Source: Escherichia coli (GTDB taxonomy: Bacteria > Pseudomonadota > Gammaproteobacteria > Enterobacterales > Enterobacteriaceae). From it: a stretch of DNA of 64,000 nucleotides. Below, piece after piece: positions 782 to 39,054 of the stretch. Under the pieces are notes generated by a model. It made no database searches and was not told the origin of the DNA. It worked only from the letters and a program-made list of their open reading frames with translations. How positions within the stretch are numbered: the first letter of the stretch is position 1; every line of letters starts with the position of its first letter. Location: the NCBI RefSeq assembly GCF_048403405.1, contig NZ_CP183129.1, one strand, 5' to 3'. Made by a program: the position numbers and the translations under genes.

Positions 782-932
782 AACTTTGCCTCAGGCATTA
801 GAAATAGCGCGTTATTGTACACGGATTAATCGCACTACAAAACAGGATCACAAACATCCTCCGCAAACAAGTATTGCAGAGTCCCTTTGTGATCGCTTTC
901 ACGGAGCATAAAAAGGGTTATCCAAAGGTCAT

Positions 933-1070
933 TGCACCAATATGGTGCTTAATGTTTCCATTGAAGCACTATATTGGTGCAACATTCACATCGTGGTGCA
1001 GCCCTTTTGCACGATGGTGCGCATGATAACGCCTTTTAGGGGCAATTTAAAAGTTGGCACAGATTTCGCT
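933..1070 (+). promoter_or_regulatory. glnA control region: NtrC enhancer palindromes (TGCACCAATATGGTGC 933-948; GCACTATATTGGTGCA 966-981) and sigma-54 promoter glnAp2 (TGGCAC-N5-TCGCT, 1055-1070)
   Basis: Motifs read directly; they match the known NtrC site consensus and the -24/-12 sigma-54 elements upstream of glnA. Confidence 0.7.
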
Positions 1071-7180: not shown

Positions 7181-7690
7181 TTAGTTGCCCCGCAGCAGAC
7201 GCATCATGTCTTCTTGCTTCTCGTCTTCTTCCTCTTCTTCGTCATCGTCATAAGAGAGGCCGAGCTTCTGCATCAACTCATCAATACGATCCAGCTTGGC
7301 ATCCACCCAGGATTGCTCTTCGGCGCTCAGGGTTTCGCCTGCTTCCAGACGTTCCAGCAGCGCATCCAGACGCTCATCCGTTTCCAGTAACTCCAACTCC
7401 GCCTGCGGTGAAAGCATAGGTTTCTCACTCTTCGGTTTGTGCTGTTTGGTGACTTTTTCAGTCACGCCCAATGGAATAGGGGTTTTACTGCCAATACGTG
7501 GATCTTTCGGTGCGTTCTGGCCTTTGCTGCCTGACGTGGTGTTACCGCCCGCTGCGCGGCTGCCCGGCGCATGACCACGACGTTTTTTCTGACGCTTACG
7601 GTCACGAGCTTCCTGATCCAGCTCCTCGCGTGTTTTTCGACGCGCTTTTGCAAGACCTTTGCTGCGTGAGTTTGAAGATGATGGTTTCAT
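7181..7690 (-). CDS. yihI: Der GTPase-activating protein YihI
   Basis: 169-aa product [32 protein letters not shown]..., acidic C-terminus; the ORF-track start at 7753 is an upstream extension. Confidence 0.9.
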
Positions 7691-7759
7691 AATGGTTCGT
7701 CTTTTAGCCGTTTTATTCAGTATAGATTTGCGGCGGAATCTAACAGAAAGCAAGCAAAG

Positions 7760-8001
7760 AAAAAAGGCGACAGATTACTCTGTCGCCTTTTTTCCTGACT
7801 CATAACCCTTAACGGGTCTTACAATCCTTGCAGGCCGCCAACACACCCTGTTTTTCCATTAGCCGGAACAATCCGTGTTGATTCCATTTCCGTTTAATTA
7901 CGTCTCCGGACGTTTGTCTTCCTGACAATCCTCTGTCTTCGCCTCCTGGCGCTCCTGACCCTCATCCTGAGTCATTGTTCCTGTTAGCGTCCTCGCTCTA
8001 T
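7760..8001 (-). ncRNA. csrC: CsrC small RNA (CsrA-sequestering)
   Basis: Minus strand reads ATAGAGCGAGGACGCTAACAGGAACAATGACTCAGGATGAGGGTCAGGAGCG... with many GGA/AGGA motifs, ending in the terminator GGCGACAGAGTAATCTGTCGCC-TTTTTT; lies between engB and yihI as in E. coli. Confidence 0.72.
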
Positions 8002-8271
8002 GGGTGCTACTTTACGCCTTTGCTTTAAACAAACAATCAACCGCCATCAGTATTTGCACATTTTCAGAGTTTTATATAAAAGCAATTAACTGATTTATAT
8101 AGCTTATTTGACATGCATCGCAGAATTTTCTCTGCTATTTCGCATAAAGACTATCGGCAATGTCTCACAAAGCGTATGGCTTTTACTTACAACGCTCACG
8201 CCGAAAAATCCGCCTTTTATTATGGTTCAGGTATAATCGCCGCAAAGCTTTGACTGACGGAGACGACCGCT

Positions 8272-8904
8272 TTGACTAATTTGAATTATCAACAGACGCA
8301 TTTTGTGATGAGTGCGCCTGATATTCGCCACCTACCTTCCGATACCGGAATTGAAGTGGCTTTTGCAGGCCGTTCCAACGCAGGTAAATCCAGCGCGCTG
8401 AACACGCTGACTAACCAGAAAAGCCTGGCTCGTACCTCAAAAACCCCAGGGCGCACCCAGCTTATCAACCTGTTTGAAGTGGCTGACGGCAAGCGTCTGG
8501 TTGACCTGCCCGGCTATGGCTACGCGGAAGTCCCGGAAGAGATGAAGCGCAAATGGCAACGCGCGCTCGGCGAATACCTCGAAAAACGTCAGAGCCTGCA
8601 AGGTCTGGTGGTGCTAATGGATATTCGCCATCCGCTGAAAGATTTGGATCAACAGATGATTGAGTGGGCGGTAGACAGCAATATCGCCGTGCTGGTGCTG
8701 CTGACCAAAGCGGACAAACTGGCAAGCGGCGCACGTAAAGCGCAATTGAATATGGTGCGTGAAGCGGTGCTGGCGTTTAACGGTGATGTGCAGGTTGAAA
8801 CGTTCTCTTCACTGAAGAAACAAGGCGTGGACAAGCTGCGGCAGAAACTGGATACCTGGTTTAGCGAGATGCAGCCTGTAGAAGAAACGCAGGACGGCGA
8901 ATGA
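8272..8904 (+). CDS. engB: ribosome biogenesis GTP-binding protein EngB/YihA
   Basis: 210-aa ORF (TTG start) [41 protein letters not shown]...; G1 motif GRSNAGKSS. Confidence 0.93.
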
Positions 8905-9029: not shown

Positions 9030-9138
9030 TAAAAAACGCCCCAGTCATTACTGACTGGGGCGGCTAAAATATTCAGCCAAATCCGATTACGTGAAGTAAA
9101 AGGTCTGAAAGATAGAACATCTTACCTCTGTACCCTAC
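9030..9138 (-). ncRNA. spf: Spot 42 small RNA
   Basis: Minus strand reads GTAGGGTACAGAGGTAAGATGTTCTATCTTTCAGACCTTTTACTTCACGTAATCGGATTTGGCTGAATATTTTAGCCGCCCCAGTCAGTAATGACTGGGGCG-TTTTTTATT; matches the recalled Spot 42 sequence and its terminator; immediately downstream of polA. Confidence 0.88.
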
Positions 9139-9285
9139 GCGACTAACTTTACTCTTTTTTGTTCAGTTCAGAAAGCACTTTTTGTAATTTTTTTTCAGTT
9201 GTTGCATAGGAATTTCTAATAGCCATCACAAAACGTGACAGCTTATGTTGCTTACTTACGAAAAAAGGGCATGTTCAGGCGAATC

Positions 9286-18231: not shown

Positions 18232-18351
18232 ATGCCTGGCAGTTCCCTACTCTCGCATGGGGAGACCCCACACTACCATCGGCGCTACGGCGTTTCACTT
18301 CTGAGTTCGGCATGGGGTCAGGTGGGACCACCGCGCTAAGGCCGCCAGGCA
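18232..18351 (-). rRNA. rrfA: 5S ribosomal RNA
   Basis: 120 nt; minus strand reads TGCCTGGCGGCC...GGGAACTGCCAGGCAT, matching E. coli 5S; rrnA assigned from flanking hemG and mobB and the Ile/Ala spacer tRNAs. Confidence 0.95.
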
Positions 18352-18445
18352 AATTCTGTTTTATTAACCCGCTTGTCGCCGGTTAATTTAATCTGTATCA
18401 GGCTGAAAATCTTCTCTCAATCCGCCAAAACAGCTTCGGCGTTGT

Positions 18446-21349
<2,904 letters not shown>

Positions 21350-21533
21350 TCACAACCCGAAGATGTTTCTTTCGATTCATCATCGTGTTGCGAAAATTTG
21401 AGAGACTCACGAACAACTTTCATTGTTCAGTGTTTCAATTTTCAGCTTGATCCAGATTTTTAAAGAGCAAAACTTCGCAGTGAACCTTTGCAGGTACACT
21501 CTGAAGTATTTTTTATTTAATCACTACAGAGAT

Positions 21534-21609
21534 GGTGGAGCTATGCGGGATCGAACCGCAGACCTCCTGCGTGCAAAGCAGGCGCTCTCCCAGCTGAGCT
21601 ATAGCCCCA
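21534..21609 (-). tRNA. alaT: tRNA-Ala (anticodon UGC)
   Basis: Minus strand GGGGCTATAGCTCAGCTGGGAGAGCGCCTGCTTTGCACGCAGGAGGTCTGCGGTTCGATCCCGCATAGCTCCACCA, 76 nt, in the 16S-23S spacer. Confidence 0.96.
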
Positions 21610-21651
21610 TAACATGTAGTTAAAACCTCTTCAAATTTGCGGTGCAAATTT

Positions 21652-21728
<77 letters not shown>

Positions 21729-21795
21729 TAGAGGTTTTACTGCTCATTTTCATCAGACAATCTGTGTGAGCACTGCAAAGCACAGTTCTTTAAGG

Positions 21796-23337
<1,542 letters not shown>

Positions 23338-36811: not shown

Positions 36812-39054
<2,243 letters not shown>

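Follow-up and report, generated by a model that had tools for sequence, protein, structure and literature searches.

Sequence-based assignment of the csrC small RNA gene in the engB-yihI spacer of an Escherichia coli genome

Introduction

Rsm-type small RNAs, like CsrC, use hairpins with GGA-bearing loops to titrate the CsrA, RsmA or RsmE dimer, and they are controlled by the GacS-GacA system (BarA-UvrY) through an upstream TGTAAG-type box. Despite this common principle, RsmY, RsmZ and RsmX of Pseudomonas and other gammaproteobacterial sRNAs of the CsrB family have no relation to CsrC in sequence or in locus. The GGA-hairpin titration principle has been described for CsrB-family sRNAs in general, which are much more stable in species without CsrD (PMC7652899). 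CsrC, like CsrB, offers multiple high-affinity CsrA sites in which the GGA preferably occupies a hairpin loop, and the two RNAs sequester CsrA dimers from mRNA leaders (PMC7652899). Transcription of csrC is activated by BarA-UvrY (PMC7652899; PMC4682653), RNase E, PNPase and CsrD are required for its decay, which unphosphorylated EIIA-Glc triggers (PMC7652899), and the loss of one of CsrB and CsrC is compensated by a rise of the other (PMC7652899; PMC4682653). Beside the ncRNA annotation of the K-12 genome, a discrete CsrC transcript of ~245 nt in vivo is supported by the published work of Zere et al. (2015; PMC4682653) and of Weilbacher et al. (2003), which PMC7652899 cites. Characterisation of the gene dates back to 2003, and the reference genome carries its annotation; it is already known and well studied, and nothing about the locus described below is new.

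CsrB (b4408; Rfam RF00018, clan CL00106) is likewise a CsrA-sequestering sRNA with GGA motifs in hairpin loops and an intrinsic terminator, and, as with CsrC, its transcription depends on UvrY acting from a far-upstream inverted repeat and its decay on CsrD and RNase E (PMC4682653; PMC7652899). The csrB promoter requires IHF and has the more symmetrical inverted repeat (TGTGAGAGATCTCTTACA), whereas csrC needs no IHF (PMC4682653). The csrB gene also lies in a different setting, syd-csrB-yqcC, from that of csrC. Here, we describe the csrC locus of one E. coli genome against this background. Its identity, location, motif density, structure, terminator, UvrY-site presence and conservation were established from the DNA, and csrC transcription, CsrA binding and turnover are taken from the literature.

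Results

Identity and location of the gene

The window (the whole 64-kb stretch of E. coli DNA analysed here) was scanned with the Rfam 15 covariance models, which produced a match to CsrC (RF00084) at 7748..8001 on the minus strand, scoring 277.9 bits (E 1e-87) and covering model positions 1-255 of 255. The curated gathering score of RF00084 is 61, so that the match reaches 4.5 times this value. Alignment with csrC of K-12 MG1655 (b4457; NC_000913.3 4051036..4051281), a 246-nt ncRNA in the curated MG1655 record, returned identity at 245 of 246 nt, and the flanking genes were identical as well. The sequence-only reading of this DNA had recognised CsrC and had named a covariance-model scan and an alignment to E. 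coli csrC as ways to check it; the end-to-end model match and the single substitution in 246 nt both bear this assignment out. Judged by its sequence, the minus-strand segment 7756..8001 is thus the E. coli csrC gene, which encodes a small non-coding RNA predicted to soak up CsrA. It shares with K-12 CsrC the locus, the 5' end and the terminator.

The gene boundaries were projected from K-12 b4457, giving 246 nt at 7756..8001 on the minus strand, with the Rfam model reaching farther, to 7748. Earlier coordinates of 7760-8001 were exact at the 5' end (8001) but 4 nt short at the 3' end, as 7760 marks the final U of the U-run and the K-12 annotation continues to 7756. The gene order is the same in the window and in K-12, polA-spf-yihA / csrC-yihI-hemN, and the open reading frame list places hemN and polA among the neighbours in the window too. 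The TTG start of yihA/engB (8272, plus strand) is divergent from csrC, and the ATG of yihI (7690, minus strand) lies on the same strand. The spacer between engB and yihI had been described as ORF-free and about 520 bp long; the former holds, but the spacer extends over 7691..8271 and measures 581 bp, of which csrC takes up 246 bp, or 42%. At its engB end, a perfect TATAAT occurs on the plus strand (8232..8237), 34 nt upstream of the yihA/engB TTG (8272), within a block conserved across species (GATTATACCTGAAC on the minus strand), and is likely the -10 element of engB.

Elsewhere in the window, Rfam matches comprised the Spot 42 gene (spf; 9030..9148, minus strand, 122.8 bits), ~1 kb from csrC, an ES222 match (863..970, minus strand, 133 bits) and a complete rrn operon (18234..23337, minus strand) with 16S, two tRNAs, 23S and 5S, in which the rRNA-spacer family StyR-44 matched at 21357..21465 (minus strand). 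A match to the Erse sRNA (38449..38700, minus strand, 317.9 bits) ends in ...AAAUGA, and it therefore probably overlaps the 3' end of a coding gene. Within the spacer, a 42.9-bit partial CsrC match on the plus strand was rejected as a spurious product of the terminator palindrome, and the other matches returned by a permissive Rfam search were all sub-threshold, centred on this same palindrome and discarded as terminator look-alikes.

Comparison with CsrB

The shared mode of action raises the question of whether the element could be a copy or variant of CsrB from clan CL00106 instead of CsrC. The two RNAs are nearly identical in GGA density (5.96 GGA per 100 nt in CsrB and 5.69 in CsrC), even though CsrB of K-12 is 369 nt long with 22 GGA against 246 nt and 14 GGA for CsrC in the window. 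Against this likeness, Rfam clan competition retained CsrC as the best model, the element gave no significant alignment to K-12 csrB (the best local match covering 32 nt with an E value of 0.011), and the terminators of CsrB and CsrC differ. A similarity between the 3' ends of the two RNAs was likewise ruled out by direct comparison with K-12 csrB. On these sequence comparisons, the assignment to CsrB is already refuted, and we regard it as vanishingly improbable.

A pseudogene annotation on the same DNA

In strains identical to the window, the automatic RefSeq annotation (PGAP) carries no csrC ncRNA but a pseudo-CDS labelled 'hypothetical protein', at the window equivalent of 7809..7975 on the minus strand (1826..1992 in L001, one of the 100% identical strains), and many other genomes bear the same label. 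Taken at face value, this annotation would make the region a decayed protein gene. However, the longest open reading frames on this strand encode 39 and 25 aa and lie in different frames, the PGAP feature is itself flagged as frameshifted with an internal stop, and the indels in the alignment of homologues ignore any reading frame. The same DNA, moreover, fits the CsrC covariance model over its full length, and the curated K-12 record lists it as an ncRNA. A decayed protein gene is accordingly an extremely improbable reading; the PGAP pseudogene is an annotation artefact, and the frameshifted hypothetical-protein label that covers csrC in many E. coli RefSeq genomes is to be ignored.

Variation within Escherichia coli

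The sole difference from K-12 csrC falls at window position 7858, RNA nt 144, with U here and A in K-12, and it turns the AAAGGA of K-12 into AAUGGA, directly 5' to a conserved GGA. The 57-mer surrounding 7858 has exact matches in 2515 complete E. coli genomes, and 2907 others differ from it at 1-2 positions; given this split, the substitution is a common polymorphism. The U at nt 144 is also common to other Escherichia representatives (L117, L024 and L095). Over a wider span, several sequenced strains match the 701 bp around csrC with 100% identity, and of 5426 complete E. coli genomes, 5425 contain the region. Among these records we observed two typed as plasmids that contain the csrC region, one (of 5426) that lacks the 701-bp region and four that lack the 57-mer; all of these are likely oddities of assembly or replicon labelling.

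GGA motifs and RNA structure

The density of GGA and AGGA motifs on the minus strand, from which the element had been noticed, was confirmed: 7756..8001 holds 14 GGA (9 of them AGGA) on this strand and 2 on the opposite strand. When 246-nt windows were slid along the 64 kb, the minus strand averaged 3.3 +/- 2.0 GGA per 246 nt and the plus strand 2.7 +/- 1.6, and the maximum of 14 was the csrC locus itself. Shuffles of CsrC that preserve dinucleotides, a harsh control because the GG and GA counts are kept, yielded 8.9 +/- 2.0 GGA, with 14 reached in 19 of 2000. The minimum free energy of CsrC, -87.7 kcal/mol, is also far lower than that of shuffled sequences (-59.5 +/- 4.0; z = -6.98), so that the RNA folds much more stably than they do.

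Projection of the Rfam consensus structure distributes the 14 GGAs among hairpin loops (6), linkers (5) and positions in or beside stems (3). The 5' part (7900..7997, minus strand) is an array of five short hairpins at RNA nt 5-16, 28-46, 51-62, 65-78 and 89-102, each with a GGA in its loop (RNA nt 10, 35, 56, 71 and 95), which are putative CsrA-binding sites. Single-stranded AGGA linkers separate these hairpins and supply further GGAs at RNA nt 21, 47 and 80. The 3' half of the RNA body (7805..7891, minus strand) begins with two single-stranded GGAs (RNA nt 111 and 117), followed by a long imperfect hairpin (nt 122-163) containing two GGAs, a small hairpin (nt 171-181) with a GGA in its loop, and a GGGUU/ACCC hairpin (nt 185-197).

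Conservation across Enterobacteriaceae

Homologues were sought with the exact 18-mer of hairpin 3 (GGAGCGCCAGGAGGCGAA) in a GTDB set holding one genome per species, which returned at least 120 loci, and blastn recovered a CsrC homologue in 59 of them. Among the matches listed, identity was 97-99% in other Escherichia representatives and 70-89% elsewhere, and the genera comprised Escherichia, Salmonella, Citrobacter, Enterobacter, Leclercia, Kosakonia, Pluralibacter, Raoultella, Trabulsiella, Silvania, Phytobacter, Pseudescherichia, Pseudocitrobacter and Superficieibacter. In all 59 (among the matches listed), engB and yihI flank the homologue as far as the locus extends to them, and each of these homologues contains 12-15 GGA. 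The other 61 of the at least 120 loci, about ten from Halomonadaceae included, fall within long stretches without stop codons in high-GC genomes and were set aside as coding-sequence coincidences; nine Halomonadaceae loci were compared with Rfam and matched no family. One record labelled Chryseobacterium sp. 18061 (CACSKA010000012.1; L112) shows the typical enterobacterial engB-csrC-yihI arrangement with an engB 90% identical to that of E. coli, and it is almost certainly mislabelled or contaminated.

The Rfam structure was further projected onto a MAFFT alignment of 61 sequences, an alignment that is not structure-aware. Across these sequences (drawn from the matches listed), 86.4% of the pair cells were standard-paired, compared with 40-51% when the partners were slid by 1-3 columns. 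Among the matches listed, compensatory changes were concentrated in three helices: 22 sequences have A-U in place of G-C in helix 1, 15 have C-G in place of U-A in helix 6, and 15 have A-U in place of C-G in helix 7. Pairs with double changes nonetheless numbered 11 against 9.5 +/- 1.5 in shuffles, which is not above the control for the 61 sequences drawn from the matches listed. The covariation signal is modest because most of the stems are short and strongly conserved. The invariance of hairpin 3 is built into the search, since the loci were selected by an exact 18-mer that covers it.

The terminator and the csrC-yihI interval

The canonical terminator that had been reported at the 3' end is present. 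A terminator scan delimited a Rho-independent element at 7757..7796 (minus strand), in which the core stem GGCGACAG/CUGUCGCC is extended by pairing of the A-run with the U-run. The resulting stem has 18 pairs, 7 of them G-C, closes on a 4-nt loop and is followed by UUUUUUCUUU, with the U6 tail ending at 7760; the U-run lies 242-246 nt from the annotated 5' end (8001). This helix (helix 11) is 98.5% paired in the 61-sequence alignment, whose homologues come from among the matches listed.

The nearness of yihI downstream suggests a different interpretation, in which the GGA-rich stretch would be a long CsrA-regulated 5' leader of yihI and not an independent sRNA, or would serve as both through read-through of the terminator. 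The gene yihI starts 65 nt past the terminator on the same strand, the spacing (59-69 nt in nearly all) and the orientation are kept in 59 other species among the matches listed, and a consensus promoter scan detected none for yihI. The 18-pair terminator with its U6 tail, however, separates the two genes and is the helix so consistently paired across species, a discrete 246-nt ncRNA is annotated in K-12, and the interval between terminator and yihI holds a near-invariant block with a TATACT hexamer resembling a -10 element, possibly a promoter of yihI's own. We therefore consider the leader interpretation very unlikely and retain csrC as an independent sRNA gene.

The block just mentioned comprises ~35 nt right after the csrC terminator (TTTCTGYTAGATTCCGCCGCAAWTCTATACT; about 7717..7752, minus strand) and was delimited in the cross-species alignment. 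Its sequence TTTCTG(Y)TAGATTCCGCCGCAAATCTATACT hardly varies across 59 species of Enterobacteriaceae among the matches listed, where it is more conserved than CsrC, and its TATACT (7719..7724, minus strand) is located ~28 nt before the yihI ATG (7690). It probably represents the yihI promoter, with TATACT as the -10 element. It could also be that the block and the fixed spacing reflect a functional coupling of csrC and yihI, for instance by regulated read-through of the terminator or by a shared 3' element; we hold this to be unlikely, and an ordinary, well-conserved yihI promoter is the more likely explanation. YihI is the GTPase-activating protein of Der, and the coupling, if true, would tie Csr signalling to YihI and hence to assembly of the 50S ribosome subunit.

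Promoter and UvrY sites

A consensus sigma-70 scan of 7600..8350 found no promoter. The csrC hexamers were missed because they are too weak and fall below the threshold, and they were instead placed by hand with the aid of cross-species conservation. Read from the sequence in this way, the putative -10 hexamer is TAAAGT (8009..8014, minus strand; -13..-8 relative to the 5' end at 8001), and the putative -35 hexamer is TTGTTT (8031..8036, minus strand; -35..-30), with a 16-bp spacer between them. The GTAAAGT that includes the former shows almost no variation upstream of csrC in 59 sequences (among the matches listed), and the TTGT core of the latter is kept in the cross-species alignment. Weak hexamers are as expected for an activator-dependent promoter.

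Such an activator site is known from E. coli csrC, where ChIP-exo and DNase I footprinting located UvrY at TGTGAGACATTGCCGATA (Zere et al. 2015; PMC4682653), and a TGTAAG half-site 16 bp upstream of this repeat is described in the same article. In the window, the imperfect 18-nt inverted repeat TGTGAGACATTGCCGATA, the activating site of BarA-UvrY, has one exact match, at 8152..8169 on the minus strand (-168..-151), and the TGTAAG half-site lies at 8186..8191 (minus strand; -190..-185). The pattern TGTAAG-N16-TGTGAGA likewise has one match in the window, and the TGT(G/A)(A/G)GA core of the UvrY site is kept across species. The published site and half-site, as in K-12, are unchanged, and the promoter is on this basis predicted to be UvrY-dependent. 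Zere et al. (2015; PMC4682653) report UvrY ChIP-exo signal not only at csrC but also near spf.

Discussion

The observations above come together in a reading that we consider nearly certain, namely that the locus is csrC with a weak, putatively UvrY-dependent promoter, an intrinsic terminator and a GGA-rich RNA product predicted to titrate CsrA; none of the observations speaks against it. All of the csrC sequence features fit the literature account of the mechanism, which for this locus would run as follows. The gene would be transcribed from a weak promoter of the sigma-70 type, with the proposed -35 TTGTTT and -10 TAAAGT, and firing of this promoter would need phosphorylated UvrY bound ~160 bp upstream. 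Transcription would end at the strong intrinsic terminator and release an untranslated RNA of ~245 nt, in which about a dozen GGAs, presented in short hairpin loops and single-stranded linkers, may mimic the CsrA sites of mRNA leaders. Each CsrC molecule would then bind several CsrA dimers and titrate CsrA off its mRNA targets, in a role presumably redundant with that of the larger CsrB. Decay would likewise help to determine the level of CsrC, with RNase E and PNPase acting on the RNA and CsrD, together with unphosphorylated EIIA-Glc, as the trigger.

For the biology of E. coli, the finding changes nothing. It explains 246 bp of the engB-yihI spacer, which are accordingly not to be mined for new elements.
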